A DNA stretch of 64,000 bases. Origin: Thermoanaerobaculia bacterium. GTDB lineage: Bacteria; Acidobacteriota; Thermoanaerobaculia; Multivoradales; JAGPDF01. Below are positions 26,820 to 64,000 of the stretch, one piece after another; position 1 is the first letter of the stretch, and each line of letters opens with the position of its first letter. The stretch is from the NCBI GenBank assembly GCA_039932315.1, contig JBDTQG010000006.1:10160-74159 (forward strand), read 5' to 3'. Both the position numbers and the translations under genes were made by a program. The notes beneath the pieces are model-generated. The model saw nothing but the letters and a program-made list of their open reading frames with translations. It made no database searches and had not been told where the DNA came from.

Positions 26820-26840
26820 GTGGCGCGAGCGCTGCCGACG

Positions 26841-27107: not shown

Positions 27108-27113
27108 TCGTAC

Positions 27114-29041: not shown

Positions 29042-29065
29042 GGAGCGCTCCTTTTCGTGCGTCGT

Positions 29066-29662: not shown

Positions 29663-29702
29663 GATCGGAGCGCCACGGATCGGATGCGTCTGCGGGCGCC
29701 GG

Positions 29703-37128: not shown

Positions 37129-37513
37129 GGACTCTCCTCTTGATTGAACAAAGGCTAACACGTCCGTCCACCTGACAAATCTCATCGGCTCGCGGCGAAA
37201 CTCGAGCGTCGCTTCGCTGGCGCTCGGATCTTCGTGGAGAAATTCGCTTGAAGCTCGATGCGTTTCTGAAGCCGAGGCTCAGCCGATGTTCAACGCCAGC
37301 AGCGCCGCTTGCACCCTCTCCGCACGGACAGGCGGGCCCAGCGCGGCGCGATGCAGTGGAACTTATTCTTGCCCCTCGCTCGCGGCCGACATCTCGAAGG
37401 GCGCGGCGCCGGACTCTCCGAGCGCCGGCCTAGGGTCGTAGCCCTCCGACGCTGATTCACTCCGCTGTCCCCTCTTGCCGCCCGTCGTCGGAAGGAAGGG
37501 TGAGGGAGATTTC

Positions 37514-42960: not shown

Positions 42961-45900
42961 TTAGGGAACCGTCACCGACCAGAGAGAGGTATTTCCCGTC
43001 TCGAAGTCGCCGTGGAAGATCGTCACCGGGACAGCCACGCAGTTCTGAACCTTGACGTCGTCGATGAACCAGGCGCCGTTCGGACGATTCACCGAGCTGT
43101 CCGAAGCGAAACGGAAGCCGAACTGCACCGTCTGGCCGGCGAAGGCGCTGATGTTCACCACCGACCGCGTGAGCGGCTGCGGATCACCGCACCAAGCCTG
43201 CAGACCGCCGATCGGACTCGTGAACTGCGTGCTCACCGGACCGTCGTAGGGGTCGGTCAGAAGGTTCGCTCCGACGATCTGGGTGAACGTCGCCCCACCG
43301 TCCGTCGAGGCTTCGAGGATGGCACCGTCGAAACAGCCGGTGGTGCCGTTGTGCTCCATCTCCTGGGCGCTCCAGTACTGCAGCGTCAGACCCGAGCCGC
43401 TCGCCGGCAGGATGATCGCCGGGGAGACGAGACGCTGGTCGGAAACGATGCTCGGGCTCGAGGCTCTCCAGGAAGCCGTGCCGGAGTGCGGATTGAGCGC
43501 CGACTGGGCCCAGCTGTTGCCCGTCCCCGAGGAGGTCCAGCCGTTGGCACCGGTCTCGAAGCCGTAATCGTAAAGGCTGGCCGCGGACGTCCCGAGCCCG
43601 CAGTCGCCGGGCAGGGCGACCGTCGAGAACGACCGCGCCGCCGAGTAGCCGCCGTTACCGCAGGTGTTGATGCCACGGACACGCCAGAAGAGCTCTACGT
43701 TCGACGGCAGGTCGGGCGAGACCGTCGTCGACGTCGTTGCCGTCGTGGCGGTCCGGATGACATTGGCGAAAGCGTTGTCCGTTGCCACCTGAAGCTCGTA
43801 CGACGCGACGCCGGTCTGCGCCGCCCAGGTGAAGCTGGTCGCGAGCGGAACGTTCGTCGCACCGGCGCCCGGCGCCGTGAGCGACGGCGCTCCCGGTGAA
43901 GCCGCATAGGCCGTCAGCTGAAGCACGAGATTGAAGCTGGTCGAGCCATCGTTGCCGTTGACGGTGATCGGGTAGTCGCCGGCGGCGACGGCTGCCGTGT
44001 TGCCGATCGTCAGCGTCGACACCGCAGGAAGAGTTCCGACCACCGGATTCGGCGACAGGTTCGTCGTCGAACCCGCCGGGTTGCCACTGACACCGAGAGT
44101 GACCGGAGAGACGAACGGCGGGGTGACCGTAAGCGAATAGACCGCATCGGTGCCGGTGCAGATCGAGACCGCGCTGTTCGCGGCGCCGAGTCCCGCGGAA
44201 GGCGTGACATTCAAACAGCTGCTCGCGGCGCCCATGCAGGCGTCGCTCGCCCCGAACGGCGCGACGACATAGGAGTAAAGCCGGCCGTTCTTCAGCCCGG
44301 CATCGTGGAAGAAGAGCGAGCTCGTCGTGCCGACCATCGCCTTGCCGAAGTTGCAGCCGAACTCGCCTTCCGTGCGATAGATCTTGTAGCGCGTCGCGTT
44401 CGGCACGGCCGGCCACGAGATATCCGCAGCGGTGTCGTTCGGGCTGATGGTCGCCGTGACCGCTGCCGTCGGACCGCCGGCACAACCGCTGACCGTCACG
44501 GCGGGTGTCGCGCACCCGATCTCATGGCGATTGAACGCGTTGGCGATCGACGTCATGTGCGGCGTTCCGTCGGCGAGGCTGCCGTTGTCATCGTCGGCGC
44601 CGAGCAACTGCTGATAGCCGGAGGTGGCGGCGCAGCCGGCGGTGCCTACGGTCGTCCCGAACCAGGTCGTGACGTTGTCGGCACCCATGAAGGCGATCCG
44701 CGTCGCGACCTCGATCGCGGTGTTGGCGTCCATGCCCAGAAGCGGCAGGTCGCGCTTCGCCAGATCCCAGATCGCTTCGGCGTAGAGGGCGCCGCGGCAG
44801 TGGACGTTGCTGCTGGGGCACTGGGCGTTCCCGTTCGCCCAAGTCAGGGTATGCGGAATGGCCGACGTGCGGTGCGCCCAGTCGATGTCGCGGATGCCGG
44901 TGCAACCCGACGCGACTGTGCAGGGATCGCCGTAGCCGCCGCAGAGATCTGTGGTGAAGCCACGCCCGACGCACGAGTTGTCGAGGCGGAGCGCCGCATA
45001 GACGTCGGCGATGCCTTCACCGGGAGTCGAGACGCCGTTCGCGGTGCCGTTGAAGTCGAGTCCATGGCCCCATTCGTGATCGAACACGCCGGCGAGCTCG
45101 CCGGTGTTGAAGCAGCCGCCGCCCGAACGGTAGAAGTTCACCGTGAAGTTGGTGTTGCTCCAGAAAGCATTGCAGGTCAGGTTGATGTTCATGTTGGAGG
45201 TGAGCTGGGCGTTGAGCCAGGTGCTGGCCGGGCCGGCGCTCCACTGACCCCGAGCCATCTCCTTGATCCGGTTGAGCTCGTAGTAGCCGGTGCGGGAGGC
45301 ATGCGTGTCGCCCGCCGAAGCGCCGCTCGGAATGGCGCAGTCGGTGCCGGCACTGACGCCGAGCTCGAGATCGCCGCTGGCGCTGCTCTGGTTGACGGCG
45401 CCGCAGTTGTCGACGATCTTGATGTAAGGCCCGACGAGCTGGGTGGTCATGTTGCCGGTGACGCCGAAGATGTTGCCACCGGAGTCGGCGTTGGCCGTGC
45501 CGCTCGTGTGCGTCACGGTTGCGAAAGGCATCGGATATCCCGGCTGTTCGACGCCGTCCGGAACCTGTCCGTCGTTCGAGGCCGGGAGAACACCGCCATT
45601 GATGTTGCGCGTGGCGTAGCTATTCATGTCCTGGAAGAAAAGGACCTCGCCGCTGTGCGCATCGATCGCGGCCTCGTAGCTCTCGTTGCGACCCGCGAAC
45701 TGCGGCTCGACGATCCATGCCAGCCGGTGCGTGTAGCCGTGGCCGGGCGCGCCGTCGACGCCGACCGGCAGCAGCTCGAGGTGCGGCTTCGCGCTATAGC
45801 CGGACGGCGTGAACGCTTCGAGGTGCGCCACCAGGAGATTCATCGCCTCACTCGCTGAGATCGACGGCTCCGTCGAGACGTCGATCTTGCCCCACTGCTC

Positions 45901-46473
45901 GGCGCCGAGAAGAATGAGATTGCCGTGGCTGACCGTCGCCACGAGGCTCGAACCGCGCACCGGCACGCCGTTCACCTGACGCAGGCCGCGAATCTGGATG
46001 AAGTCGCCGCTTTCGTCGACGCTGGTCCTCGGCGTCAGCTCTTCGGCCGGGATGCGGAGCTCCGCCCGGTGCGCGTCGAGGTAGCGGACGAGCCCGTTCC
46101 AGGCGGAAAGACCCAGCTCGGATTTCGCCGGAGCTTGGCTCTCTCCGAGAGCGGCCCAGGTGAGGTCGTTGCCGACGCCGTCACCCGGAATGAGGGGCGC
46201 GCTCAGCCAGAGCGTGGCCCACTGGCCTCCTCTCGCGTCGATGAAGGCGTAGCGGGAGTCCAGCCCGAGGCGCGCGAGATCGTCGGAAAGTCGGCCGGCG
46301 ACCGCGGACTCGAGCTCCGAAACGGACTTGAGCGAGGGCTCGGTTGCGAGGCCGGCCAGGCGGACTTCCTTGTCCGCGAGGGGCGAAGCCTGCGGCACGG
46401 TCAACGCCGAGGTGATGCCTGCGACCGAGAGGAGAAGGGCGGATGCGGCGAGACAGCGATACCTCTGGTTCAT
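42961..46473 (-). CDS. Large secreted HExxH zinc metalloprotease with fibronectin-III-like and MAM/CBM-like domains, ending in the tail motif
   Basis: Start at MNQRYRCLAASALLLSVAGITSA (signal peptide). Zinc site VFDHEWGHGLDF. FN3-like segments (PNATRYKIYRTEGE, ASYELQVATDNAF). An internal jelly-roll domain begins YDYGFETGANGWTSSG. The C-terminus is PVTIFHGDFETGNTSLWSVTVP*. Confidence 0.7.
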   Translation of the reverse strand: MNQRYRCLAASALLLSVAGITSALTVPQASPLADKEVRLAGLATEPSLKSVSELESAVAGRLSDDLARLGLDSRYAFIDARGGQWATLWLSAPLIPGDGVGNDLTWAALGESQAPAKSELGLSAWNGLVRYLDAHRAELRIPAEELTPRTSVDESGDFIQIRGLRQVNGVPVRGSSLVATVSHGNLILLGAEQWGKIDVSTEPSISASEAMNLLVAHLEAFTPSGYSAKPHLELLPVGVDGAPGHGYTHRLAWIVEPQFAGRNESYEAAIDAHSGEVLFFQDMNSYATRNINGGVLPASNDGQVPDGVEQPGYPMPFATVTHTSGTANADSGGNIFGVTGNMTTQLVGPYIKIVDNCGAVNQSSASGDLELGVSAGTDCAIPSGASAGDTHASRTGYYELNRIKEMARGQWSAGPASTWLNAQLTSNMNINLTCNAFWSNTNFTVNFYRSGGGCFNTGELAGVFDHEWGHGLDFNGTANGVSTPGEGIADVYAALRLDNSCVGRGFTTDLCGGYGDPCTVASGCTGIRDIDWAHRTSAIPHTLTWANGNAQCPSSNVHCRGALYAEAIWDLAKRDLPLLGMDANTAIEVATRIAFMGADNVTTWFGTTVGTAGCAATSGYQQLLGADDDNGSLADGTPHMTSIANAFNRHEIGCATPAVTVSGCAGGPTAAVTATISPNDTAADISWPAVPNATRYKIYRTEGEFGCNFGKAMVGTTSSLFFHDAGLKNGRLYSYVVAPFGASDACMGAASSCLNVTPSAGLGAANSAVSICTGTDAVYSLTVTPPFVSPVTLGVSGNPAGSTTNLSPNPVVGTLPAVSTLTIGNTAAVAAGDYPITVNGNDGSTSFNLVLQLTAYAASPGAPSLTAPGAGATNVPLATSFTWAAQTGVASYELQVATDNAFANVIRTATTATTSTTVSPDLPSNVELFWRVRGINTCGNGGYSAARSFSTVALPGDCGLGTSAASLYDYGFETGANGWTSSGTGNSWAQSALNPHSGTASWRASSPSIVSDQRLVSPAIILPASGSGLTLQYWSAQEMEHNGTTGCFDGAILEASTDGGATFTQIVGANLLTDPYDGPVSTQFTSPIGGLQAWCGDPQPLTRSVVNISAFAGQTVQFGFRFASDSSVNRPNGAWFIDDVKVQNCVAVPVTIFHGDFETGNTSLWSVTVP

Positions 46474-46654
46474 TTCTGCTCCTTGCAAAGAGAGACGGGT
46501 GGAACTACTGCACGGAACCGTCGTCACAGAGCTACTGGCCTAAGGTAGCCGACACTTTACCGCAGCCGAAAGCGCGGGCCAATGCCGGTTTCCCCAGGGC
46601 CCCTGGAACCTCGGCCGGTGCTACGCTCCGCGAGAGATCCTGCGAGGATATTCC

Positions 46655-48289
46655 ATGCCGCTGTCTCGTCGCTTCCTTCGTCTCCGGACGATCCGTCCCG
46701 TCGCTCCCTTCTTGTCGCTGCTGTTTTCTTTTCCGGCGTTCTCCCCTGCACAGGCAGTCGCACCCGCAAACGTGGACCCCTGGGTGCTCGACGCAATGCA
46801 GCGATCGACGCGATCGACGCGGTCGACACGATCTGCGCCATCTGCGCCGGGCAGCGCGGGGACGAGCGAATTCCTCATCGTCATGAAGGAGCAGGCCGAC
46901 CTCTCGGGTGCGGCACGGTTGTCGACGAAAGCCGAGAAAGGCCGCTTCGTCGTCGAGCGTCTGCGGGAGACAGCGGCGCGATCGCAGTCGCCGGTTCTCG
47001 CGACTCTCGCCGCTGCGGGCGTCGAGCACCGCTCGTACTGGGTCGCCAATCTCATCTGGGCGAAGGGCGACGCGAATCTCGTCGCCACTCTCGCCGCGCG
47101 CTCCGATGTGCGCGGAATCGCAGCCAATCCCGTCGTCGCCGGGGAGCGCTCGCGGAGCGGCCAGCTGCCGGACTCTCTCCTCCCCGAAACCTTCGATGCG
47201 ATCGATGCCGTCGAGTGGAACATCTCTCTCGTGAACGCTCCCGCCGTCTGGGCCCTGGGCTATTCCGGTCAGGGCGCGGTCGTCGCGGGCGAAGACACGG
47301 GCTACGACTGGACTCACCTCGCGCTCAAGAGTCACTATCGCGGCTGGAACGGCGCGACGGCGGACCACAACTTCAACTGGCACGACGCGATTCACTCGAG
47401 CACGGGCGACTGTTCAGGCAATCACACCGAACCGTGCGACGACGTCGATCACGGTTCGCACACGATGGGCACGATGGTCGGCGACGACAACAGCGGAAAT
47501 CAGATCGGCATGGCGCCGCAGGCGAAATGGATCGGCTGCCGCAACATGGATCAGGGAAACGGCACTCCCGCGACGTACACCGAATGCTGGCAGTGGATGA
47601 TCGCCCCGACAGATCTCGCGAATGCCAACCCCGATCCAGCGAAGGCGCCGGATGCGATCAACAACTCCTGGGGCTGCCCCGCGGCGGAGGGTTGTGACGC
47701 CAACGCGACGGAAGCGATGCGCCTCGTCGTCGAGAGCGTCCGCGCCGCCGGGATCGTTCCGGTCTCGTCGGCAGGCAACAGCGGCTCCGGCTGTTCGAGC
47801 GTCAGCACACCGGCGGCGATCTACGACGCCATCTTCACCGTCGGCTCGACGACAATCAGCGACTCCATTTCGTCCTTCTCGAGTCGCGGGCCGGTCACCG
47901 TCGACGGCAGCAATCGCCGCAAGCCCGACATCGCGGCTCCCGGAAGCAACGTCCGCTCTTCGGTTCCCGGCGGTGGTTTTGCTTCCTTCAGCGGCACCAG
48001 CATGGCGAGTCCGCACGTCGTCGGGCTCGTCGCGCTGCTGATCTCCGCTGAACCGGCTCTTGCCGGCAACGTCGAGCGGATCGAAGAGCTCATCCGGGAG
48101 GGCGCTGTGCATCTCACCTCGAGCGCCCAGGTCTGCGGTGGACTCTCCGCGACGGTCTATCCGAACAATACATTCGGCTTCGGCCGCATCGACGCGATGG
48201 CGTCGATCGACCTGCTTCTCGCCGGTCTGCTCTTCCGCGACGGTTTCGAGAGCGGCCTCACCGACGACTGGACGCCGACCCTCCCCTGA
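46655..48289 (+). CDS. Secreted subtilisin-like serine protease (peptidase S8) ending in the tail motif
   Basis: Catalytic triad contexts VAGEDTGYD (Asp), DHGSHTMGT (His), GTSMASPHV (Ser). Signal peptide and propeptide present. The C-terminus is LLFRDGFESGLTDDWTPTLP*. Confidence 0.85.
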   Translation: MPLSRRFLRLRTIRPVAPFLSLLFSFPAFSPAQAVAPANVDPWVLDAMQRSTRSTRSTRSAPSAPGSAGTSEFLIVMKEQADLSGAARLSTKAEKGRFVVERLRETAARSQSPVLATLAAAGVEHRSYWVANLIWAKGDANLVATLAARSDVRGIAANPVVAGERSRSGQLPDSLLPETFDAIDAVEWNISLVNAPAVWALGYSGQGAVVAGEDTGYDWTHLALKSHYRGWNGATADHNFNWHDAIHSSTGDCSGNHTEPCDDVDHGSHTMGTMVGDDNSGNQIGMAPQAKWIGCRNMDQGNGTPATYTECWQWMIAPTDLANANPDPAKAPDAINNSWGCPAAEGCDANATEAMRLVVESVRAAGIVPVSSAGNSGSGCSSVSTPAAIYDAIFTVGSTTISDSISSFSSRGPVTVDGSNRRKPDIAAPGSNVRSSVPGGGFASFSGTSMASPHVVGLVALLISAEPALAGNVERIEELIREGAVHLTSSAQVCGGLSATVYPNNTFGFGRIDAMASIDLLLAGLLFRDGFESGLTDDWTPTLP

Positions 48290-48299
48290 CGGGCGCTCG

Positions 48300-48330
48300 G
48301 CCGCGCAGCGCGGCTAGCGCGCTGCGCGGC
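48300..48330. terminator. 13-bp-stem palindrome between the convergent S8 protease and cytochrome genes (candidate bidirectional terminator)
   Basis: GCCGCGCAGCGCG-gcta-GCGCGCTGCGCGGC. It begins 11 nt after the S8 stop and overlaps the last codons of the cytochrome gene. Confidence 0.5.
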
Positions 48331-50071
48331 GACGCCGCAGAACGAACCAGCCGGCAGCCGCGAGAAGCGCTGCGGCGGTCGCGAGCCCGGTCGGAGAAAG
48401 CGCCGGGATCTCGATGACACCGCCGGTACCTTCGACCACGATCGTCGCTTCGTTGCGCGCCACCTCGACCTCGATCGGGTCGCCGTGCGTGGTCACTGTC
48501 CACCCCTTGGTGACCGCGAGGGCGCGCCAGGCGCGACGATAGAGAAGCACCGCGGTGACCTCGACGTTCGATCCCGCGGGCGTCCCCGGCGGCACGGCGA
48601 ACTCGACCTCGGTCGTGTCAATCGTTCCGGAGGGGATCGTGGTGAGCGAGAAAACGCTCTCGGCATCGATGAACAGGACCGGCATCACCACCGGCCCCTG
48701 CCCGTTGATCCGCCCCTGCAGCACCTTCGCGAAGCCCTTGCCGGGCTGACCGGCGAGATCGCCCGGCTGATCGCCCGGGACGTCGTCCGAGCCCCAGAAC
48801 GGAATCTTCGGACCGGAGACCTGCGCGAGCGGCTGCCCGTTGAGGGTCGCCGTGATCCACAGCATCGCGTTGCGGATCGAGATCCCGGTGGGGAAGTCGT
48901 GCCCGGCGCCGAAGTTGTCGATCGAACTCGTGACCTTGACGTTTCCGGACGGCAGCTGCGCGGCGCTGCTCGTGAGCGCGATGTTCGCCGACAGCGTTTG
49001 CGGCGTCGAGCCGATGAACGTGTGCGCGTGGCGCTGCGCGCTCTGTCGTGTCGGCGCTCCGAATTCGCAGTTCTCGCCTTCGCCCGCGAGGTTCGGCATG
49101 TGGCAGTCCTGACAGACCTTGTAGTTCGGGCCGGGCGTGCCGTACGGCGAGCTCTGCCATTCGAGGAAGGTGTTCTGCCCCGGGGCGTCGGTCGTCGGGT
49201 TGTGGTACTGATGGCAGGAGGCGCAGATCTGGGATTTCGTGTGCAGCAGCGAGTAGGACGGTCTCATCAACGAGAACGTGACGTCGTTCATCGGTCCCCA
49301 GACGTACGAGGCCGTCGAGGCGCCCTTCGATGGAACCGGAAAGCGGTAGGTCGCCTTGCCGCGGTGATGGAGCGCATTGATGTGCGACTCGTCGATCGAA
49401 TCCATCTGATGGCAGGTGACACAGATCACGCCCTGGGCGCCGTTCGGTTCCGTGGCCTCGTCGAGCGGCACGCCCTCGGGCCGCGGATCCTGCAGGTCCT
49501 GCATCGGCGCGTGGCAGGTGGCGCAGAAGCCGGTTTCGCCCGGATCGTGACTGTTCTTGAAGACATAGCCCGCGCTCCCGCCGGGCGTCCCCGTTCCCGA
49601 GAACAGATCGAGCACCCACTTGTTCTGCGCCGTGTAGGCGTGGTGCGAGGTCGTCCACTGCTTGTAACGCTCGAAATGGCAGGCACCGCACTCGGAAACA
49701 TCGGGCGGCACGTAGCTCGGATCGTTCGTCGTCGACATCTCTTCCATGCGGATGTCGATGCCGGTATCTCCGTCGGCGGCCGTCGCGCCACCGATGATGA
49801 AGTTCTGCGGCGCGCTGCGCAGATAGGGAATCGACGCCGCGAGAAAGACCAGGCCCGGCGGGATGCCGGTGAGAGTGAAGCTGCCGTCGGCGGCGGAGAA
49901 AGTGCCGGGAGTCGTCAAGTCGGCCTGGATGTGAACGTAGGCCCCGGCGATCGGCGTTCCCGGCTCTCCGCTGCCTTCGACCCGGACGAGACCGGAGACG
50001 TCCGCTGACGCCGACGTGGCGATCGTCCAGAAGGCGGCAAAAGCGAACGTGCAGATCCGGCTGCGGGCCAT
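48314..50071 (-). CDS. Pentaheme c-type cytochrome with N-terminal carboxypeptidase-regulatory-like domain and PEP-CTERM/IPTL-CTERM-like anchor
   Basis: Start at MARSRICTFAFAAFWTIATSASA. N-terminal CarboxypepD_reg-like β-sandwich (GLVRVEGSGEPGTPIAGAYVHIQ...ADGSFTLTGIPPG). Five CxxCH sites (CGACH, CATCH, CVTCH, CASCH, CQDCH). The C-terminus is IEIPALSPTGLATAAALLAAAGWFVLRRRRAAR*. Confidence 0.7.
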   Translation of the reverse strand: MARSRICTFAFAAFWTIATSASADVSGLVRVEGSGEPGTPIAGAYVHIQADLTTPGTFSAADGSFTLTGIPPGLVFLAASIPYLRSAPQNFIIGGATAADGDTGIDIRMEEMSTTNDPSYVPPDVSECGACHFERYKQWTTSHHAYTAQNKWVLDLFSGTGTPGGSAGYVFKNSHDPGETGFCATCHAPMQDLQDPRPEGVPLDEATEPNGAQGVICVTCHQMDSIDESHINALHHRGKATYRFPVPSKGASTASYVWGPMNDVTFSLMRPSYSLLHTKSQICASCHQYHNPTTDAPGQNTFLEWQSSPYGTPGPNYKVCQDCHMPNLAGEGENCEFGAPTRQSAQRHAHTFIGSTPQTLSANIALTSSAAQLPSGNVKVTSSIDNFGAGHDFPTGISIRNAMLWITATLNGQPLAQVSGPKIPFWGSDDVPGDQPGDLAGQPGKGFAKVLQGRINGQGPVVMPVLFIDAESVFSLTTIPSGTIDTTEVEFAVPPGTPAGSNVEVTAVLLYRRAWRALAVTKGWTVTTHGDPIEVEVARNEATIVVEGTGGVIEIPALSPTGLATAAALLAAAGWFVLRRRRAAR

Positions 50072-50228
50072 CGGGTCAGGTCCTCCGAAGAGTGGGAACC
50101 GGCTCATTCTCCGTCATCGTCCGGGCGCTGGCTAGCCTGCTGCGGCGTTTTCTGCGGCGAGGCCTCCGCCCCTGTTGCCTCCTGCACAGCCCGCGTCCCT
50201 CGAGCGCCACAAAATCCGCCTTACTGTC

Positions 50229-51965
50229 ATGAGAAAACACTGGCTGGTGGCCGTCTTCGTCGCGGCAGCGCCGCTCCTCGCCGAACCGGTCCGGGCCGAC
50301 ATCGGTCTCTCGCTGGCGTATGTCGACCTCGGATCGCCGGCCTACGCGCGTTTCAAGAGCTTCGTCGATCAGGCGGTCGGGGGAAACCCGGGCTATGCCT
50401 TCTCCGCCACGGACGCGGTCTACATGTACAAGCTGACCGGCCAGCCGCAGTATGCGACGCTCGCCATCTCCTGGGTGGAGGATCAGGTGACCGCCGCCGA
50501 GGCGGCGATCGCCAGCAGCCAGAGCCCCGAGATCGCCGGCGACTCCTATCTCGCGGTCGGCGGAATGCTGCGCGACGTGGCGCTGGTCTACGACTGGTGC
50601 TATCCGCTGCTCACCCCGACGCAGCGCACCCGCTGGGCGGCCTACGCCGATCAGGCGGTCTTCAATGTCTGGAACCACGCCACGGCGAGCTGGGGCGGGC
50701 ACCCTTTTCCCTGGTCGGGCTGGTCGGTCGACAACCCCGGCAACAACTATCACTACAGCTTTCTCGAAGCGACGATGTACTGGGGCTTCGCCGGCGACCG
50801 GCAGAACTGGATCGACTACCTCGCGAACACCAAGCTGCCCGCTCTGGTCTCCTACTTCCAGGCGCTGCCCGGCGGCGGGAGCCGCGAAGGCACCGGCTAT
50901 GGCGTCGCTCTCGGCCGGCTCTTCGAGATCTACCGCCTGTGGAAGGACTCGACGCCGACGCACGCCGATCTCGGCGCCCAATCGACGCATCTCGCCGACA
51001 CTCTGGACTACTGGATTCACGGAACGGTACCGACGCTCGATCGCTACGCGCCGATCGGCGATCTCTCGCGCGAGTCCTATCCCTCGCTCTACGACTATCA
51101 CCGCAACCTGGTGCTCGAAGCCCGCGCCATGACCGCCGCGCCCGGCGGCACCGCCGTCGCCGCACGCGCGAGCTGGTGGCTGCACCACATCGCGGTCGAC
51201 GAGATGACGTCGGGCTTCAACTTCCGCGACGACCTCCTGCCGGCCGGCTCGACACAGACGCAACCCACGGCGCTCTTTCATCATGCGACCGGCGCGGGGC
51301 ACCTCTTCGCGCGCCGCAGCTGGGCGACGGACTCGCCATGGATCTCCTTCGTCGCGGGGCCGTACGTCGAATCGCACGCCCATCAGGACCAGGGCGCATT
51401 CAACTACTTCCACAACGACTGGCTGGCGGTGACGGAAAACATCTGGAGCCACAGCGGCATCGAACAGGGAACCGAGATCCACAACACTCTCCGCTTCCTG
51501 AACGGCAGCGCGACGATTCCGCAGACCGAGAGCACTTCGTCGATGACCGTCAGCGACAGCGCCGGCGTGCTGCACGTCGCCGCCAATCTGACTCCGGCGT
51601 ATGCATCTTCCGGGGTCATCAGCAACTGGCAGCGCGCTCTGGACTTCGATTCGACCAGCCTGACGGTGACGGACAACTGGAGCGCGGCCGGCGGCGTGAC
51701 CGCGGTCTTTCAGGTCAACGTTCCGGCGACGCCGAGCGTCACCGCGGGAGTGATCACCGCGGGCGCACTGCGGATCCGCCCGATCACTCCGGCGAACCCG
51801 GCGATTTCGATCGTCAACTGGCACAACGTCGACACCGAGGAGTTCAACTCCGGCTACAAGGTCGAGCTCCGTGGCGGCACGGGAACCTACGTCGTTCGAC
51901 TCGAGTACCTCGGTGGACTGTTCTCGAACGGCTTCGAGAGCGGCAACTTCAACGCCTGGGACTGA
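50229..51965 (+). CDS. Secreted heparinase II/III-like / alginate-lyase-like polysaccharide lyase family protein ending in the tail motif
   Basis: Signal peptide MRKHWLVAVFVAAAPLLAEPVRA. N-terminal α/α-toroid-like region and Hepar_II_III-like β-sandwich (VESHAHQDQGAFNYFHNDWLAV). The C-terminus is LEYLGGLFSNGFESGNFNAWD*. Confidence 0.55.
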   Translation: MRKHWLVAVFVAAAPLLAEPVRADIGLSLAYVDLGSPAYARFKSFVDQAVGGNPGYAFSATDAVYMYKLTGQPQYATLAISWVEDQVTAAEAAIASSQSPEIAGDSYLAVGGMLRDVALVYDWCYPLLTPTQRTRWAAYADQAVFNVWNHATASWGGHPFPWSGWSVDNPGNNYHYSFLEATMYWGFAGDRQNWIDYLANTKLPALVSYFQALPGGGSREGTGYGVALGRLFEIYRLWKDSTPTHADLGAQSTHLADTLDYWIHGTVPTLDRYAPIGDLSRESYPSLYDYHRNLVLEARAMTAAPGGTAVAARASWWLHHIAVDEMTSGFNFRDDLLPAGSTQTQPTALFHHATGAGHLFARRSWATDSPWISFVAGPYVESHAHQDQGAFNYFHNDWLAVTENIWSHSGIEQGTEIHNTLRFLNGSATIPQTESTSSMTVSDSAGVLHVAANLTPAYASSGVISNWQRALDFDSTSLTVTDNWSAAGGVTAVFQVNVPATPSVTAGVITAGALRIRPITPANPAISIVNWHNVDTEEFNSGYKVELRGGTGTYVVRLEYLGGLFSNGFESGNFNAWD

Positions 51966-54216
51966 CCGGGAGCTCCGCGGTCTCCGTCGGCCGGTCCTGG
52001 CCGAAGAGCGCCGGGACGAGCGTGAAGTCGGCGATGACGGCGATCACGATCGCGACGCCGGAGAGAACCCCGAAGCGCGCAGTCGGCGCGAAGTTGGAGA
52101 GCGCGCAGACGCCGAATCCGCACGACAGGATGATGCCCGTCAGCAGATAGGCCGGGGCGGTCTTTTCCATCCGGTCGGCGACCGCGGCGCGCTCTCCCAT
52201 TTCGACACGGAGCTCGCGATAGTGCGCCAGCGTATGGATGGTGTCGTCGACCACGAGCCCGAGCGTGATCGAGGCGACCATCACCGTCGCGATGTCGAGC
52301 GGCACCCCGAACCAGCCCATGCCACCGAGGATGAGCAGCACCGGCCAGAGGTTCGGCGCCAACGCGTAAAACGTGCCGCGCGCGTCGCGGAGCAGGATGT
52401 AGAACGTGAGCGCCAGCACCGGTAACGTGAGGATCAGCGACATCGCGAGCGTGGAGATGAGGTAGCGCTGCATGGCAAGGAGGAGCGGGAACTGGCCCGT
52501 GACGACGACCGCCGCGCCCGGAAGCGTCGTCGCGGCCACTCGTCGCACTTCGGCGATCAGCGGGTCGACGGCTTCGTAGCCCACCGTCGGAACGAAGAGG
52601 GTCAGGCGTGCGCGCGTGCCGTCCGGTGAGAGAAAGCGCTCGAGCGCACGGCGCCCGGCGGCGTCGCTCTCGACCAGCGGCAGCAGACGGGACCGGAGCT
52701 CCGCGGGAGTGAAGGCGCGCGCCATCGGGCTGGCGCGCCCAATGTCGTCCAGCAGATCCGTCGCCGTAACTGCCGAGAAGAGGCCCGGCAGCCGGCGAAG
52801 TTCCGCGGCGAACCGGGCGAGCTGATCGAGCCGTTCGGGGTCGCGGAAACCCGCGCCCTCCCCCGCCGCAGAACTGCCGGAAACGGACAGGACGAGCTCG
52901 ATCGACGACAGCCCGATCCCCTCGGCCTCGACCGCTTCGATGCTGGCGCGTGCGGGATGATCCGGCGCGAGATAGTGCAGCGCGTTGCTCGCCACCACGA
53001 GCCGCGGCAAACCGGTCACCGCGAGCAGCGCGAGACCGCCGTAGATGAGGAGCACCGTACGGCGATGATCCGCGGCGAGATCGGTCAAGCGCCGGCCGAG
53101 CTGCTGCAACCTCCGCTCGAGAACGCGTTCGGGCAGATTCGTTCGCCGCCCCATCGTCATCGCGAGCAGGCAGGGAAGGAGGGTAAACGCCGCTATGCCC
53201 GTGAAGGCGAGGCCGACGCCGGACCAGAGGCCGAGCGTGCGGATCGGCGCAACGGGAGTCGCCGCGAGCGAAAGAAAGCCGGCGAGCGTCGAGACCGTCG
53301 TCCAGAGGAGCGCCCGACTCTTGTCCTTGTAGGTCGCGAGCGTGGCTTCGACCGCGTCGAGTCCTTCGGCCTCGATGTCGCGACACCGCATCATGATGTG
53401 AACGGCCGAGGCCAGAGCGATGACGAAGAGGATCGGCGGCAGGATGGCGAGGACGAGGTTGAACTTCACTCCGCCGTAGCCCATGGCGCCGAGAACAGGG
53501 AGCTCCACCGCGGCGACGAAAACGAGCGGCACGGCGACCGCTGCGAGCTCGCGGAACATCGCCGCCAGAAGCAGTGCGGAGAGGATGAGCAGTAACGGGA
53601 AGTAGAACTGACCGACTTCGCGCGCCGACTCATCGAGCGCGCGCTCGAGCGTTGCCGCGCCGACGACGGACGCCTTCACACCCGCCGGTGGCGACGCCGT
53701 CCGGCGCTCGAGCTCGGCGAGGAGCGCCTCCTGCTCTCTACCCTGACCCGGCGCGAGCTCGACGACGAGAGAGAGCTCACTTCCACTCGCGGTGACGAAT
53801 CCCAGCGCGCGATCGAGATCGTTGGCGCGGAGGAGGGCACGAAAACCCGCCGGATCCGTCGGCGGAAACGTGACGAGCTCCCGGCGATGGTGACCGACCG
53901 GCCCGTTGACGCTCTGCACTCCCGGAATGCCGGCGATCTCGCGCTCGAGGCGGTCGAGGAAAGCGAGCCCATCGGCGCTCCACAGCTGCGTTCCGCCGAG
54001 GACGATCCGCACTCCGTGCCCCGTGCCGAAGCGGGCGACGAAGTCGCGATAGCTCGCGAGATCGCTCGATCCGGCGAGAAAGAAGACCTCGGGAGAGTTG
54101 TCGCTCTGGAGGCGTGCGACACCGGGCAGCAAGGCTGCGACGGCGAGCGCGAAAAACGCCAGAACGAACCGCCGTCGGCGGAGGACGGCTGCGACCAGTG
54201 CGTCGAGAAACTTCAA
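51949..54216 (-). CDS. MMPL/RND-superfamily lipid exporter (HpnN/MmpL-like)
   Basis: Two 6-TM bundles separated by large periplasmic loops, with an RND/MMPL hydrophobicity pattern. Proposed TTG start at 54216 (reading MKFLDALVAAVLRRRRFVLAFF) overlaps the upstream gene stop (TTGA). The track N-terminus is Arg/Pro-rich noise. Confidence 0.7.
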   Translation of the reverse strand: MKFLDALVAAVLRRRRFVLAFFALAVAALLPGVARLQSDNSPEVFFLAGSSDLASYRDFVARFGTGHGVRIVLGGTQLWSADGLAFLDRLEREIAGIPGVQSVNGPVGHHRRELVTFPPTDPAGFRALLRANDLDRALGFVTASGSELSLVVELAPGQGREQEALLAELERRTASPPAGVKASVVGAATLERALDESAREVGQFYFPLLLILSALLLAAMFRELAAVAVPLVFVAAVELPVLGAMGYGGVKFNLVLAILPPILFVIALASAVHIMMRCRDIEAEGLDAVEATLATYKDKSRALLWTTVSTLAGFLSLAATPVAPIRTLGLWSGVGLAFTGIAAFTLLPCLLAMTMGRRTNLPERVLERRLQQLGRRLTDLAADHRRTVLLIYGGLALLAVTGLPRLVVASNALHYLAPDHPARASIEAVEAEGIGLSSIELVLSVSGSSAAGEGAGFRDPERLDQLARFAAELRRLPGLFSAVTATDLLDDIGRASPMARAFTPAELRSRLLPLVESDAAGRRALERFLSPDGTRARLTLFVPTVGYEAVDPLIAEVRRVAATTLPGAAVVVTGQFPLLLAMQRYLISTLAMSLILTLPVLALTFYILLRDARGTFYALAPNLWPVLLILGGMGWFGVPLDIATVMVASITLGLVVDDTIHTLAHYRELRVEMGERAAVADRMEKTAPAYLLTGIILSCGFGVCALSNFAPTARFGVLSGVAIVIAVIADFTLVPALFGQDRPTETAELPVSPRR

Positions 54217-55454
54217 GCGCAGGTCGCCGGACGGGCCGCCATTGCGGCCGGGAGCGGCCAGGCAAGCCGGCTGCAGAGGCGCAGAGATCGGGCGAGCGGC
54301 AGTCCGGCGAAGGGGCGCCGTGCGCCGAGGAGGCCGAGGAAGCCCGAGAACAGAACCGGATCCGCCGAAAGCGCCGCGACCAGGCGCCGTCGCAGCGCCG
54401 GGCGGCGCGCGAGCGCGAGCAGAAGGTACGTCCATCGTTGCGGTAGCGCCGCGAGGTTCGCGGCGCGCCGGGCGTACACCCCGAGGTCTCCCAGTGCGAG
54501 AGCTTCACCGAGTTCGAGCGCGCTCTCGAACCCGAGCGAAAGCCCTTCGCCGGTGAGGGCGTCGACATAACCCGCCGCGTCGCCGACGAGCGCCAGCCGC
54601 CTGCCGGCGGAGACCGTCCCGCGCGTGCGTTGCAGAAAAGGCCCGGCGCCACGATCGCGACCGAGCGCCTCCGCTCCGGCAATGCGCTGCGCGAAGCTCG
54701 CCGGAATCCGCGACGCGAGGAGCTCGTCGAATCCGCCCTTTCCGCCACTCCACAGAATCGCGACGCCGATCTCGTCGGCGGCGAGCGGCGTCACATAGAC
54801 CTCGGCGCGATCGCCGAACGTCACCTCGACATGATCGGACCAGGGCGCGAGACGCAGATGCCGGGTCACGCCGAAGCGGGCGTTGCGCCCGGGCGTTGGG
54901 CTGCGCTCGCCCGGACCGCTGCGACGGGCGCGACCCGCGCGCTCCAGTCCGCTGTCGCGCCGGAGATGCGAGTGCAGGCCATCGGCACCGACGACGAAGC
55001 GGCAGGGCCAGACACGGTCCGCGGAACGCACCTCGCCGCTGCCGGCGGCGAGAACGCGAACGCCCCATTCGAAGGTGACTCCCACCGCGATCGCACGCTC
55101 GTGGAGCGCCGCGGCGAGCTCGGTGCGGCGGACGCCACGGCCGCAGAGACCGTCCGGGAAGGCGGCTTCGGCGACGCACCCGTCGGAGACGTAGCGAATT
55201 CCACGAAACGGCATCGAGCGCGCAGGAAGTGCGACGCCGAGCGCCCGGAGGGCCGCGAGACCGGACGGCATCAGGCCCTCGCCGCAGGCTTTGTCGATCG
55301 GCGGACGCTGGCGATCGACGACCAGGACCGTCAATCCGCGGAGCCGCGCGGCGATGGCGCTCGCGAGACCGACCGGGCCGCCACCGACGACAACGACATC
55401 CTGTGCCGGACCGGTCGACGGCGGCGACGCTTCCGGTGGCTCGTGAATATTCAT
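54213..55454 (-). CDS. FAD-dependent oxidoreductase of the geranylgeranyl-reductase family
   Basis: Start at MNIHEPP. Rossmann motif VVVVGGGPVGLASA. KACGEGL and LALVGDAAGYVDALTGEGL (GDAAG) are GGR-family signatures. Its ATGA overlaps the GT2 stop. Confidence 0.75.
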   Translation of the reverse strand: MNIHEPPEASPPSTGPAQDVVVVGGGPVGLASAIAARLRGLTVLVVDRQRPPIDKACGEGLMPSGLAALRALGVALPARSMPFRGIRYVSDGCVAEAAFPDGLCGRGVRRTELAAALHERAIAVGVTFEWGVRVLAAGSGEVRSADRVWPCRFVVGADGLHSHLRRDSGLERAGRARRSGPGERSPTPGRNARFGVTRHLRLAPWSDHVEVTFGDRAEVYVTPLAADEIGVAILWSGGKGGFDELLASRIPASFAQRIAGAEALGRDRGAGPFLQRTRGTVSAGRRLALVGDAAGYVDALTGEGLSLGFESALELGEALALGDLGVYARRAANLAALPQRWTYLLLALARRPALRRRLVAALSADPVLFSGFLGLLGARRPFAGLPLARSLRLCSRLAWPLPAAMAARPATCA

Positions 55455-56218
55455 CGCCGGAGCTCCGGCGGCTCGCCGGCAAAGCGCAGGAAACGCGGCC
55501 GCGCGAGCCCGGTGCGGGCGAGGAAACCCGCCAGAGCCACGTGCAGCACGCCGAAGCCGTAGCGCAGCGAAGGCAGCAGGGAGATCGACGAGGCCTCGGG
55601 GAAATACTTTGCCGGACAGGAGATCTCGCCGATGCGGAAGCCTGCGGCGAAGCACTGCACGAGGAGCTCGTTGTCGAAAATGAAATTGTCCGAGTTTTCC
55701 GTCAGTGGAAGGCGCTCGAGAACCTCTCGCCGGTAGGCGCGAAAGCCGGTGTGGTACTCCGAGAGCTTCTGCCCGAGGAGCAGATTCTCGACCAGCGTCA
55801 GAACGCGATTCGAGATGTACTTGTAGAGCGGCATGCCGCCGGCGAGCGCACCGCCGCCCAGAATCCTCGAGCCCAGGGTCACGTCGTATTCACCGTAGGC
55901 AATCATCGCCGCCATGGCCGGCACCAGACGCGGGGTGTACTGGTAGTCCGGATGGAGCATCACGATGATCTCCTCCGGACCGGCGAGGGCCGCCGCATAA
56001 CAGCTCTTCTGGTTGGCGCCGTAGCCGCGGTTCGCCGGGTGGAGGTAGGTCTCGATGCCGAGCTTCCGCGCGATCGCCACCGTATCGTCGCCGGAGGCAT
56101 CGTCGACCAGCAGGATGCGATCGACGATCTCACGGTCGATCTCGCGGAATGTCCGCTCGAGCGTCGACTCCGCGTTGTAGGCCGGCATCACGACGCAGAC
56201 GCGCTTTCCCAGGATCAT
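55451..56218 (-). CDS. Family 2 glycosyltransferase (DPM1/polyprenyl-phosphate sugar transferase-like)
   Basis: VCVVMPAYNAESTL...LLVDDASGDDT (DxD-containing GT-A fold N-terminus). Confidence 0.8.
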   Translation of the reverse strand: MILGKRVCVVMPAYNAESTLERTFREIDREIVDRILLVDDASGDDTVAIARKLGIETYLHPANRGYGANQKSCYAAALAGPEEIIVMLHPDYQYTPRLVPAMAAMIAYGEYDVTLGSRILGGGALAGGMPLYKYISNRVLTLVENLLLGQKLSEYHTGFRAYRREVLERLPLTENSDNFIFDNELLVQCFAAGFRIGEISCPAKYFPEASSISLLPSLRYGFGVLHVALAGFLARTGLARPRFLRFAGEPPELRR

Positions 56219-56295
56219 CGCCCGGCCATTCTATTCCCCCGTGTTACGCTCGATTCGATCGCTGCAGAACTGCGCGAACTGGGGGCGATGCCGTC

Positions 56296-59200
56296 GTGAC
56301 CGAGAGAGATCCACGCTTGCAGACGCTGCTCGATCGGCGCTATCGGATTCTCGAACGCGTCGGCGAGGGCGGTGCGGGGGTGGTCTATCGCGCGCGTCAC
56401 GAGGAGATGGACCGGACGGTTGCGATCAAGGTCCTGCACCCGGAGCTCTTCCCCTCGCCGGTCGCGCTGGCGCGCTTTCGCCGCGAAGCACGCGCCGCCG
56501 GTGTCCTCGTTCATCCGCACGCCGTCACGGTGTTCGACTTCGGACGCACCGACGAGGGCGAGCCGTACCTCGCGATGGAATACTGCGACGGCGGCGCCCT
56601 CTCCGACCGGATCGCCGCCGCCGCGGACACCGGCAATACCGCGGACGCTCTCTCCCCGACGGCGACGGTCGCTCTCCTTTCCGGAATCGTCGCGGCCGTC
56701 GACAGCGCGCATCGACAGGGGATCGTGCATCGCGACCTCAAGCCGGGCAACATCCTTTTCGCCGGCACGGTCGCGAAAGTCGCCGATTTCGGCCTCGCGC
56801 GGATGCTCGACAGCGATGATCCCGGTCTTACGGCGGGCCACGCCATCGGTTCGCCCTTCTACATGAGCCCGGAGCAGTGCCAAGGCCGCCCCGCCGGAAC
56901 CGCGAGCGACATCTACAGTCTGGGCGTCATCGCCTACACACTGCTCACCGGTCAGGTTCCGTTCCGCCGCGGCACGGCGCAGGAGGTCCTGCTCGCTCAC
57001 CTCACCGAGGAACCGCTGCCGCCGCAGGCGCTCGCACCGCGGCTCGGGAGAGCGCTCTCGGGCGCGGTGCTCCGCGCGCTGGCGAAGAATCCGGATGCCC
57101 GTCCGGCGACGGCGGGCGAATTCCACGCCGCCCTCGCCGCGGCGCTCGCCGAGACGACGCTCGAGAGCGCAATGCCGCTTGCGATCTCCGGACAGGGCAG
57201 CGCCGGAACGTCCAGGTCCGGCATGCCGGGCCACGGACTCGCTGCAGCCGGCTCATCGTCGAGCGCCTTGCGCGTGCGCCGAGCCCTGCGCGACCGGTCG
57301 ACCGGAGCTCCCAGCGAGCCGATCGGACGCGGCGAAGAGCTCGCTCTGCTCCAGGAACTGCTGCAGGCGGCGAGCTCGGGAAGCGGTCAACTGGTGACCA
57401 TCGCCGGCGAACCGGGCGCCGGCAAGTCGACCCTCGCCCACGCCTTCCTGCGGCGGGCGCGAATGACTGTCCCGGTCGCGCGGATCGCGCTCGGACGATC
57501 GCCGGAGCACTTCGGCTCCGCCGAAGCGTATTCGCCGTTTCTCGATGCGCTCGGCAATCTCCTCGCCGGCGGCGAGCGCACGCTGCTCCTGCCCCGCCTC
57601 CTCGATCTCGCGCCGACCTGGGCGCTCCATCTGCCGGGGGTCGCGAGTGAAGTCGAGGCCGGCGCCGGAGAGACGCTTGCCGGCATGCGCTCGCGCGACC
57701 GCATGCCGCGCGAGTTCGCGGCGTTCGTCGAAGCGACGACCGCCGACCGTCCGCTCGTCCTCCTGCTCGAGGATCTGCAGTGGGCCGATCCGGCGAGCGT
57801 CGATCTGCTGGTGCATCTCACCCTGCGGCTCGAGGGGTTGAGGCTTCTGCTCCTCGGCACCTATCGCCCGGCCGAAGTCGAAGCCCAACGCCATCCGCTG
57901 CGCGCGGCGCTCGCGCACCTCGGGCGCGGGAGTCTGCCGTGGAGCGAGATCTCGCCCGCGCCGTTTGCTGCCGGCGAGGTCGAGGCTTTCCTGCGGCGTG
58001 AGCTCGGCGCGCCGCCGCCGCCCGAGCTCGTGGCCTTCGCCCTGCGCCGGACCGAGGGCAATCCGCTTTTCCTTCTGAACGTTCTCAATCACCTTCTGCA
58101 GTCCGGCGCGGTCACGCGCGACGGAGATCAGGTGATTCTTGCGCGCTCGCTCGATTCGATGGAGCGCATCGTTCCGGAAGGAATCGTGGCGCTCATCCGC
58201 CAGAAAGTGGACCGGCTCGACGACTCCGATCAGCGGCTGCTCTCGGCGGCAAGCGTCGAAGGCCTCGAATTCACCGCCGCCGTCGCCGCTCGACTCTCCG
58301 GTCGCGACGAAATGGAAATCGAGGAGCGTCTGCGCGCGCTGCAGGCGACACACCACCTGGTCGAGCCGATCGACGAAGTCGAGCTCGCGGGAGGGCATTC
58401 CATCCAGCGCTATCGCTTCGTGCACTCGCTCTACCAGCACGCTTTCTACGACGCGCTCGCGCCCAAGCGTCGTGCCGCAGCGCACCTCGCGGCGGCCGAG
58501 GCGCTCATGGCGTTCCACGCCAGCCACCTCGAATCGATGCGCGTCGCCCTCGCGCTGCACTTCGAACGGGGACGGGATTTCCCGCGCGCGATCGAGCAGT
58601 GCCTCGCTGCGGCGGAGCTCGCCGGCTCGCGCAACCCACGCGACGCGCGGCCGCTGCTCGCGAAGGCGCTCGAGCTCGCCGGCAAGCTCTCGCCCGAGGA
58701 GGCGACGACCCGCCGCGCCGAGCTGCTGATCCGGCTCGGGCGCCACGACGCCGAGAGCGCGGAGTTTGCCGGCGATGTCGAGCTCTACGCGCGCGCCGAA
58801 GAGGCGGTCTCGGAGGCTCTCGAGCTCGAGCCGGGATCGGTCGAAGCCCGCACGGTGCTCGGCCTCATCCATCTAGAGCGGGGCGAGAACGAACGCGCTT
58901 TCCTCGACTTCGCCCGCACCCTCGAACGAGCGCCCGCGCACGCCGGGGCCTGGGACGGCCTGTCGTATCTGTTCAAGAACACCGGACTGTGGACGGCGTC
59001 GCTCGCCGCGCAGGAGCGCGCCGCCGAGCTCGACGACCGCTTCGCCTTCTCGATCCGGCGACTGTCCGTACTGATCTACCAGGATCGTCTCGAGGAGGCG
59101 CGCGCGGAAGCGACGGCGCTCGTCGAGCGGCGGCCGAAGTTCGCCCACTACAACTACTGGCGCGGAATCGCCTCCTGGTACGCCGGCGAGCGCGCCGAAG

Positions 59201-59666: not shown

Positions 59667-60206
59667 CTAGCGCAGCTCCCGCCGCATGATGACGCGCAGG
59701 TGCATGGGGAAACCGCCCATCGCTTCGCGCTGCTGCAGGCGGACGAGGCCGGGGGTGAGCTCCTCCGGTCGCAGGATGCGAAAGCCGCGCTTGGCGTAGA
59801 ACGGAGCGTTCCAGGAAACATCGGTGAGCGTCGCCAGCGTGATCGCGCGATAGCCACTCACGCGCGCGATCGCGGCGACCGCCTCGAGCAGCTGGCTGCC
59901 GACGCCTCGTCCGGAAACCTTCGGATGCACGTCGATCTCCTCGAGATGAGCGATGCCGTCGATCTCGCTGGTGTAGGCCATGCCCACCGGCGGCGAGTGG
60001 TCGATCGTCGCGACCCAGAGCGTGCGCGCGCGGACCTGCCGCGCGAAGAGATCGGGCGAAAAGTTCTGTCGCCAGAAGGCATCGAATGCCGGATGCCCCT
60101 CGAAGCGCAGGGTCGCCGCGCGTTCGATCGGCGCGAGCCACGGGATGTCCTCCATCTCGCCACGCCGGATCATCACTTCCCCGCCATTCATCGCCGCTTC
60201 CTCCAC
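59667..60206 (-). CDS. GNAT-family N-acetyltransferase
   Basis: Acetyl-CoA-binding motif region VSGRGVGSQLLEAVAAIARVSGYRAITL. Confidence 0.6.
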   Translation of the reverse strand: MEEAAMNGGEVMIRRGEMEDIPWLAPIERAATLRFEGHPAFDAFWRQNFSPDLFARQVRARTLWVATIDHSPPVGMAYTSEIDGIAHLEEIDVHPKVSGRGVGSQLLEAVAAIARVSGYRAITLATLTDVSWNAPFYAKRGFRILRPEELTPGLVRLQQREAMGGFPMHLRVIMRRELR

Positions 60207-62020: not shown

Positions 62021-62052
62021 TCCCTCGAAAGTGCGCGGAGACGGGCGGAAGA

Positions 62053-63990: not shown

Positions 63991-64000
63991 CGCGGGTCGC

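Follow-up and report, generated by a model that had tools for sequence, protein, structure and literature searches.

A Pentaheme Cytochrome c of Thermoanaerobaculia with a Predicted IPTL-CTERM Tail, and Its Possible Sorting to the Cell Envelope

Introduction

Cytochrome c552 and the ExtKL/MccSep-type proteins, which share an Ig-like domain, have been placed in one group, the pentaheme cytochrome (PHC) family (PMC11976967). MccSep of Geobacter (PDB 9WT8), which shares the pentaheme-cap and Ig-stem organization of the family, is a soluble tetramer of the periplasm and uses heme 2 to reduce polysulfide; this heme is ligated by a His and by Cys239, and a selenocysteine on an Ig-domain loop, Sec325, assists it (bioRxiv 10.1101/2025.11.18.688581). 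The T. tepidum cytochrome c552 (PDB 5ZE8) is a soluble protein of about 435 amino acids (aa). Here we describe a gene of this family located on the reverse strand of a 64,000-nucleotide stretch of contig JBDTQG010000006.1 from a Thermoanaerobaculia bacterium (Acidobacteriota; assembly GCA_039932315.1, positions 10,160 to 74,159 of the forward strand). This whole stretch is called the window below, and the product of the gene carries a predicted sorting signal of the exosortase type at its C-terminus.

The known routes by which bacteria install multiheme cytochromes at the cell surface are lipoprotein signals, type II secretion and porin-cytochrome complexes. MtrC, OmcA and MtrF are decaheme lipoproteins whose hemes are divided over two pentaheme domains; the type II pathway exports them, and they dock on the MtrAB porin complex. 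The XrtH/IPTL-CTERM system (TIGR04177 and TIGR04174) has, to our knowledge, almost no experimental literature. No experimental data on IPTL-CTERM proteins were found in the literature beyond the S-layer protein mela_00855 of Methylomirabilis lanthanidiphila, which covers a diderm cell as its outermost layer (PMC8671808). This case shows that the cargo of an IPTL-CTERM system can be carried past the outer membrane. The fusion of a multiheme cytochrome to a C-terminal signal of the exosortase/archaeosortase class has a precedent in concept in archaea of the anaerobic methanotrophic (ANME) groups 2a and 2d, whose cytochromes carry PGF-CTERM or PEF-CTERM archaeosortase signals and were proposed to serve extracellular electron transfer (PMC5244752). 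Those proteins differ from the one described here in being archaeal, in their signal classes and sortases, in their unrelated cytochrome architectures and in their S-layer fusions. No paper was found that links IPTL-CTERM, XrtH or PEP-CTERM to a bacterial multiheme cytochrome.

A pentaheme core related to cytochrome c552 and MccSep

The 585-aa product consists, in order, of a Sec signal peptide, a CarboxypepD_reg-like beta-sandwich, five CxxCH motifs, an Ig-like domain and a tail made of a short motif, a transmembrane (TM) helix and an Arg cluster (Table 1). We give about an even chance to the view that it is a c-type pentaheme electron-transfer protein, exported by Sec, matured in the periplasm and sorted to the envelope or surface. 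What is new is the combination of a c552/ExtKL pentaheme core, lacking the heme-ligating Cys of MccSep, with an N-terminal beta-sandwich and an XrtH-class tail; also new are the wide spread of this arrangement across two phyla and its interchangeable C-terminal tags. The annotation of the tail is already public: a 100% identical NCBI protein, from a metagenome-assembled genome and a 91-kb contig, is named 'IPTL-CTERM sorting domain-containing protein [Thermoanaerobaculia bacterium]', so the idea is less new than the first-pass annotation of this DNA, which was made from sequence alone, had implied.

Exactly five CxxCH motifs were found, as that annotation had stated. The window has 149 six-frame open reading frames (ORFs) of 200 aa or more; 147 of them contained no such motif and one contained a single copy, while five occurred in the cytochrome ORF alone. 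The 15 Cys and His positions of the motifs (15/15) are invariant in 78 relatives, the set to which the residue counts below refer. The five motifs are not a product of chance.

When the family profile was compared with solved structures, the best match was T. tepidum cytochrome c552 (5ze8, E=1.2e-13). The alignment spans the heme region and the beta-domain that follows it, and it places the loop N-x-G-x-G-H-x-F-P-T-G opposite P-H-A-M-P-T-G of c552; both proteins thus have five CxxCH motifs and, after them, an Ig-like domain whose H-x-x-P-T-G loop is conserved. Cytochrome c552 differs in having neither a CarboxypepD_reg domain nor a C-terminal anchor, and in having a Cys where the family has P-G-Q-N-T. 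The profile match to the MccSep/ExtKL structure (9wt8) was weak (E about 0.07). The NCBIfam model for the ExtKL multiheme (seleno)protein, NF040886, was matched over 283 profile positions (E=1.4e-12) at 46.9 bits, far below its equivalog cut-off of 250. The five CxxCH motifs, the Ig-like sandwich and the sequence homology together make the core a member of the PHC family of c552 and ExtKL/MccSep.

Other multiheme families were approached less closely. The Pfam MtrC/MtrF domain II/IV gave a borderline score (30.3 bits vs a cut-off of 30), and Cytochrome_C7 was also among the borderline or sub-threshold matches. The likeness to MtrC, OmcA and MtrF consists of this match and of the proposed redox role at the cell surface, whereas five hemes, no lipobox and no nearby gene for a porin or periplasmic cytochrome were found here, and none of the lipoprotein, decaheme, type II export and porin-docking features of those proteins is present. 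Foldseek matches to 6qyc and 4lmh were insignificant.

The relationship to MccSep raises the question of catalysis. A multiheme enzyme similar to MccSep, that is, a polysulfide or selenite reductase, or another reductase of sulfur or nitrogen oxides that is simply tethered by its tail, would agree with the homology to ExtKL/MccSep and c552, with the proposal that c552 acts in sulfur metabolism (PMC11976967), and with an extra residue, Cys335, that is invariant in Thermoanaerobaculia. We nevertheless consider such an enzyme quite unlikely. The Cys of c552 and that of MccSep align into the family segment P297-G298-Q299-N300-T301, which has no Cys and whose Q299 is kept in 69 of the 78 relatives, so that the position of the heme-ligating Cys239 is taken by P-G-Q-N-T. 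No conserved Cys or selenocysteine occurs in the loop of the Ig-like domain among the relatives, which have an invariant His there instead; the alignment to MccSep ends before U325, and the loops are presumed to be equivalent. Cys335 was rejected as a family-wide heme ligand or catalytic residue, being present in only half of the family (39/78), and the wide shortfall from the ExtKL equivalog cut-off points the same way.

Five conserved candidate distal ligands are available for the five hemes: H144 (72 His plus 6 Met), H175 (68/78), M269 (69 Met plus 6 His), H350 (78/78) and, in the loop of the Ig-like domain, H391 (78/78). Together with the missing Cys at the position of MccSep Cys239, they argue that all five hemes would be hexacoordinate and that the protein would be an electron carrier rather than an enzyme of the MccSep type. 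Judged by its sequence, it would extend the c552/ExtKL-MccSep family to an anchored form of non-catalytic appearance.

The CarboxypepD_reg-like N-domain proposed in the first-pass annotation is a probable assignment. The protein itself scored 27.3 bits against PF13620, under the gathering cut-off of 32.3; precomputed PF13620 matches are present on many homologues, and profile comparison matched the domain to the N-terminal domains of SusC/TonB-dependent receptors. An AlphaFold2 (AF2) model built from a 31-sequence alignment (overall predicted local distance difference test score, pLDDT, 60.9) was confident in two regions only. One was this N-terminal beta-sandwich, at residues 25-110 with pLDDT 82-92; the other took in much of the C-terminal sandwich (about 360-545). 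Since the heme region was modelled poorly (pLDDT <50) and a Foldseek search of the model against the PDB returned no match at E<=0.001, we refrain from structural claims on the heme core.

An IPTL-CTERM tail conserved in two phyla

The tail has the tripartite layout described in the first-pass annotation: the motif IPALSPTG, the hydrophobic helix LATAAALLAAAGWFVL and the cluster RRRRAAR follow one another, in a protein that also has an N-terminal signal peptide (residues 1-23). The annotation had assigned it loosely to a PEP/IPTL-CTERM-like class and had named the sorting-signal models by which this could be judged. TIGR04174 (IPTL_CTERM) was passed at 23.1 bits against a curated cut-off of 20.5, all model positions (1-27 of 27) being aligned to residues 555-581 of 585, and the tail scanned alone reached 28.9 bits. 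The PEP-CTERM model TIGR02595 scored 12.7 bits on the whole protein, short of its cut-off of 16, and the tail has no P-E-P motif. The exosortase-type class is thus supported at the level of sequence, specifically as IPTL-CTERM, and the PEP-CTERM half of the assignment falls away.

The tail is conserved among relatives in both Acidobacteriota and Gammaproteobacteria. The motif Pro (P556) is kept in 70/78 relatives, and the motifs range from EIPTLAPWG to VPVPSL. Thermoanaerobaculia have E-I-P-A/T-L-S/A-P-x-G, and Gammaproteobacteria have A-I-P-T/A-L/I-G or V-P-V-P-S-L, followed in both groups by a helix and an Arg cluster. When 63 TM-type tails of the family were each scanned against NCBIfam (E<=0.01), TIGR04174 matched 34 of them (best E=3.7e-9), the motif region of NF033207, 'midcut-by-XrtH protein', matched 40 (best E=1.1e-8), and PEP-CTERM matched one. 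A tblastn search of plasmids with a consensus IPTL tail gave no match, probably owing to low-complexity masking.

The protein resembles described IPTL-CTERM/XrtH substrates in its tripartite tail, which exceeds the TIGR04174 cut-off, and in its signal peptide; several substrates with the same tail per genome may be a further point of likeness, and the genus Methylomirabilis has XrtH. It differs in its motif, IPALSPTG instead of IPTLxxWG, in its cargo, a multiheme cytochrome instead of an S-layer subunit, and in that the labelled carriers of XrtH belong to other lineages.

The same type of tail was seen on other proteins. A second secreted ORF of the window, of 269 aa and with a signal peptide, ends in ...VEIPAIGPLGAVALALALAGLAMRRIVARRHPGS; its tail, made of VEIPAIGPLG, a TM helix and RR, was not significant against TIGR04174, and the protein matched no Pfam or NCBIfam family. 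Three unrelated non-cytochrome proteins in related Acidobacteriota loci (L013, L018 and L039 in our numbering) also carry it.

Exosortase H and its linkage to IPTL-CTERM genes

Seeds for the exosortase XrtH were obtained by scanning metagenome contigs for DNA coding IPTLSEWG, which returned 120 loci. Nearly all of them were genuine tails, lying 27-40 residues before a stop codon. In 10 of the 120 loci a small membrane protein (about 160-220 aa) was encoded within a few kb of the IPTL-CTERM gene. Two of the ten were scanned and matched TIGR04177, 'exosortase H', with 119.5 and 176.1 bits (cut-off 86), and XrtH was assigned in the other eight by phmmer similarity to these two. In additional loci the direct neighbour of XrtH is an IPTL-CTERM gene. 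A general genomic link between the two is thereby shown, and the sources themselves name the XrtH proteins 'exosortase H (IPTLxxWG-CTERM-specific)'. Labelled carriers were Wenzhouxiangella, Wenzhouxiangellaceae, Rhodanobacteraceae, Xanthomonadales, Ottowia and Candidatus Methylomirabilis. Since XrtH is labelled in Wenzhouxiangella, Rhodanobacteraceae and Xanthomonadales, the gammaproteobacterial lineages that have the cytochrome also carry the exosortase.

The XrtH proteins (L096 5909-6508, L083 2049-2681, two copies in L145, and L202-L210) are about 160-220 aa long, with roughly five TM segments and the conserved motifs G-C-[NED]-[GA], L-N-x-x-R and H-x-x-x-W-Q. The gene after XrtH often encodes a protein of about 210 aa (Pfam XrtH_assoc) or, in high-GC (guanine plus cytosine) loci, a membrane protein with a SEC-C motif. 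One protein in L202 has two IPTL-type motifs, one in the middle and one at the C-terminus. A neighbour of about 270 aa with six TM segments in Wenzhouxiangella was considered as an exosortase and rejected, since it is AmpE-like by eye and had no XrtH match.

Predicted sorting and the destination of the cytochrome

In the proposed pathway, the c552/ExtKL-MccSep pentaheme and Ig-like fold of the PHC family would act as the core, to which the N-terminal beta-sandwich and the C-terminal IPTL-CTERM have been added. The TM helix and the Arg cluster of the tail would keep the precursor in the inner membrane. An XrtH-type exosortase would then cut at I-P-A-L, leading to attachment of the mature protein to the cell envelope or the cell surface. 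The five hexacoordinate hemes would pass electrons to, or take them from, a partner outside the cell or in the envelope, with no sulfur catalysis of the MccSep kind. The tail annotation is already public, and what we infer is each functional step: that XrtH processes the protein in the source organism, where the protein ends up, what its redox partner is and which physiological role it plays.

The distribution of the family bears on the destination. At least 544 related clusters at 90% identity were found, nearly all of about 580 aa, and 113 relatives occur in species-representative genomes. They comprise Thermoanaerobaculia, Holophagae and other Acidobacteriota on one side, and Gammaproteobacteria at about 50% identity (Lysobacterales, Wenzhouxiangellaceae, Rhodanobacteraceae) on the other; the latter group has one cultured strain, Wenzhouxiangella sp. 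XN79A. The habitats of the family are soils, sludge and sediments. In five orthologues of Lysobacterales/Rhodanobacteraceae the C-terminus reads ...LFADGFES... in place of the IPTL-type tail, and two further orthologues end in dockerin-like repeats. The cytochrome module thus looks like a 'choice-of-anchor' cargo. Because orthologues swap the tail for FxDGFE or dockerin-like C-termini, an extracytoplasmic destination is favoured and would fit better than a fixed role at the inner membrane.

The loci of the FxDGFE-tagged orthologues (L051, L064, L067, L069 and L071) have a paralogous pentaheme cytochrome immediately downstream, at about 11.7-13.9 kb in the locus. This paralogue is about 640-690 aa long, has the C-terminus ...YGRSPPEDMVS... 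and is without an anchor. In the window, a shared C-terminal tag of the approximate form [LIF]-F-x-D-G-F-E-x-G-x4-W-S-x3-P closes six secreted proteins. Counted over 970 proteins of related loci, the core motif FxDGFE was found five times elsewhere and 48 times in the last 30 residues, against 4.2 expected from uniform placement. The tag is matched by no model of Pfam or NCBIfam and, since it stands in for the IPTL-CTERM tail in some Lysobacterales orthologues of the cytochrome, it may be a secretion or sorting tag not described before.

The main rival is a simpler one, in which the tail is an ordinary C-terminal TM anchor and the cytochrome, left unprocessed, remains tethered to the periplasmic side of the inner membrane and carries electrons in the periplasm. 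We regard it as possible but doubtful. Several observations favour it and weigh against exosortase sorting. The window contains no exosortase, its polytopic ORFs being only RodA, an ABC-2 permease and an MMPL transporter. Pfam detected none among 34 polytopic proteins from 80 orthologue loci, and phmmer with two XrtH seeds found none among all ORFs of 90 aa or more from the window and these 80 loci (1.39 Mb, within 10 kb of the orthologue). Some 240 XrtH matches were listed by profile searches and cluster look-ups, and none of those listed, nor any whose gene context was looked up, bears a Thermoanaerobaculia label. IPALSPTG keeps I, P, L and G of the IPTLxxWG signature and has A for T and T for the signature W; the Pfam IPTL-CTERM model PF18203, at 17.5 bits, did not reach its cut-off of 20.8. 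The characterised relative MccSep is soluble and periplasmic (bioRxiv 10.1101/2025.11.18.688581). Two further points weigh against the reading as a sorted electron carrier: the assignment of the heme ligands comes from conservation alone, AF2 being poor across the heme region, and no other cytochrome, porin or obvious redox partner was found nearby (one other ORF of the window has a single CxxCH).

A plain anchor, however, would have no need for the Pro motif conserved before the helix, and it leaves aside that the tail passes the curated IPTL-CTERM cut-off of NCBI and that family tails match an XrtH-cut motif down to E=1e-8. The non-membrane FxDGFE and dockerin-like tags of orthologues are also a poor fit to an inner-membrane role. 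On balance, surface sorting of the pentaheme cytochrome is plausible.

As regards the physiological role, the lack of other cytochrome or porin genes nearby argues against metal respiration of the classical kind. Genome data led to the inference that the genus Wenzhouxiangella is aerobic throughout (PMC7691419). With the family present in Wenzhouxiangellaceae, metal respiration is therefore not a safe default. On the other hand, cultured Thermoanaerobaculum aquaticum reduces Fe and Mn oxides, according to a statement cited in bioRxiv 10.1101/2020.10.01.322446.

Two bolder extensions of exosortase sorting can be drawn. In one, which is unlikely as a whole, an XrtH-type exosortase would display the pentaheme cytochrome beyond the outer membrane of diderm Acidobacteriota and Lysobacterales as a porin-independent extracellular electron terminal, possibly as an array (compare the related archaeal AvECN nanowire and the Methylomirabilis S-layer), with interchangeable tags that include FxDGFE...W. 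In the other, the sorted protein would not be a monomeric surface cytochrome at all and would build an extracellular conductive array, either a filament or an S-layer-like lattice. The sole IPTL-CTERM protein studied experimentally is an S-layer subunit, which speaks for an array, whereas MccSep is a closed tetramer and the AF2 model is too poor for an analysis of interfaces; we consider the array very unlikely.

A signal of the exosortase class on so widespread a family of cytochromes would indicate that redox proteins can be placed in the envelope by a route other than those known. The system lends itself to experiment, as the cultured carrier Wenzhouxiangella has the cytochrome, and XrtH occurs in its lineage.

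Gene model and export signal

The ORF reaches 48314..50107 on the reverse strand, and the NCBI model starts at its far end. GGAGA lies right against the upstream ATG at 50107, whereas the ATG at 50071 has a Shine-Dalgarno sequence 10 nt upstream, and the latter is favoured for this reason. The spacing favours the 585-aa frame as the better gene model, in agreement with the coordinates of the first-pass annotation. The signal peptide, read directly from the sequence, is MARSRICTFAFAAFWTIATSASA, with cleavage before D; neither a lipobox nor a twin-arginine motif was seen in it on the same reading. The mature N-terminus D-I-S-G is nearly invariant among relatives.

Table 1. Features of the cytochrome gene and of other genes in the window (positions are those of the window).
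Feature	Coordinates	Strand	Remarks
Whole cytochrome gene	48314..50071	(-)	585 codons plus stop at 48314-48316; NCBI model start at 50107
Shine-Dalgarno GGAGG	50082-50086	(-)	10 nt upstream of ATG at 50071
Sec-type signal peptide	50003..50071	(-)	residues 1-23; cleavage between ASA and D, read from sequence
CarboxypepD_reg-like beta-sandwich N-domain	49742..49996	(-)	residues 26-110; PF13620, AF2, profile matches
Pentaheme domain	49022..49702	(-)	residues 124-350; NF040886 E=1.4e-12, PDB 5ze8 E=1e-13
CxxCH, CGACH	49676-49690	(-)	residue 128
CxxCH, CATCH	49511-49525	(-)	residue 183
CxxCH, CVTCH	49409-49423	(-)	residue 217
CxxCH, CASCH	49211-49225	(-)	residue 283
CxxCH, CQDCH	49100-49114	(-)	residue 320
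Ig-like beta-sandwich domain	48437..49003	(-)	residues 357-545; AF2 strands
G-H-x-F-P-T-G loop of Ig-like domain	48884-48910	(-)	invariant; aligned to c552 loop PHAMPTG
Predicted IPTL-CTERM sorting signal	48317..48409	(-)	residues 555-585; TIGR04174; IPALSPTG motif, TM helix, RRRRAAR
Second secreted ORF with same tail type	36376-37185	(-)	269 aa
FxDGFE-tagged protein	16922-17830	(-)	
FxDGFE-tagged protein	17652-19280	(-)	
FxDGFE-tagged protein	37442-38872	(+)	
FxDGFE-tagged protein	42961-46539	(-)	
FxDGFE-tagged protein	46544-48289	(+)	
FxDGFE-tagged protein	50136-51965	(+)	
MMPL/HAE3 (HpnN-like) RND (resistance-nodulation-division) transporter	51952-54504	(-)	
GT2 glycosyltransferase	55454-56230	(-)	upstream of MMPL/HAE3 gene
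Ser/Thr kinase-AAA-TPR protein	55969-59607	(+)	
Acyl-AMP ligase	60191-62116	(-)	
Type III polyketide synthase	62914-63999	(-)	cut by window end
MmeI-type restriction-modification enzyme	23898-26840	(-)	

Genomic neighbourhood

The cytochrome gene had been placed in the middle of a block of secreted hydrolases. One neighbour is a clear S8 subtilase, and to this extent the description holds; the others are a weakly heparinase-like protein and proteins of choice-of-anchor-J-like, FG-GAP and delta-60-repeat type. In the closest Thermoanaerobaculia the gene order GT2 glycosyltransferase, MMPL/HAE3 transporter, cytochrome, convergent S8 subtilase and Crp regulator is kept, and in some of them a heparinase-like gene is inserted on the opposite strand between the MMPL gene and the cytochrome. 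In four genomes (L009, L017, L020 and L028) the gene for the MMPL transporter, which is of a lipid-export type, touches the start of the cytochrome gene or runs into it, and in Wenzhouxiangellaceae the gene immediately upstream of the cytochrome is hemJ-like by eye; neither arrangement points to a redox partner. A dedicated operon with a redox partner was rejected, the conserved neighbours being the MMPL transporter, the S8 protease and the Crp regulator.

Upstream of the GT2 and MMPL genes lie those for an acyl-AMP ligase, a type III polyketide synthase and a large Ser/Thr kinase-AAA-TPR protein, a set that suggests a phenolic-lipid or glycolipid cluster. A lower-GC island at about 22000-30000 (59-62%, against about 66-70% elsewhere), which encodes the MmeI-type restriction-modification enzyme, was probably acquired horizontally.

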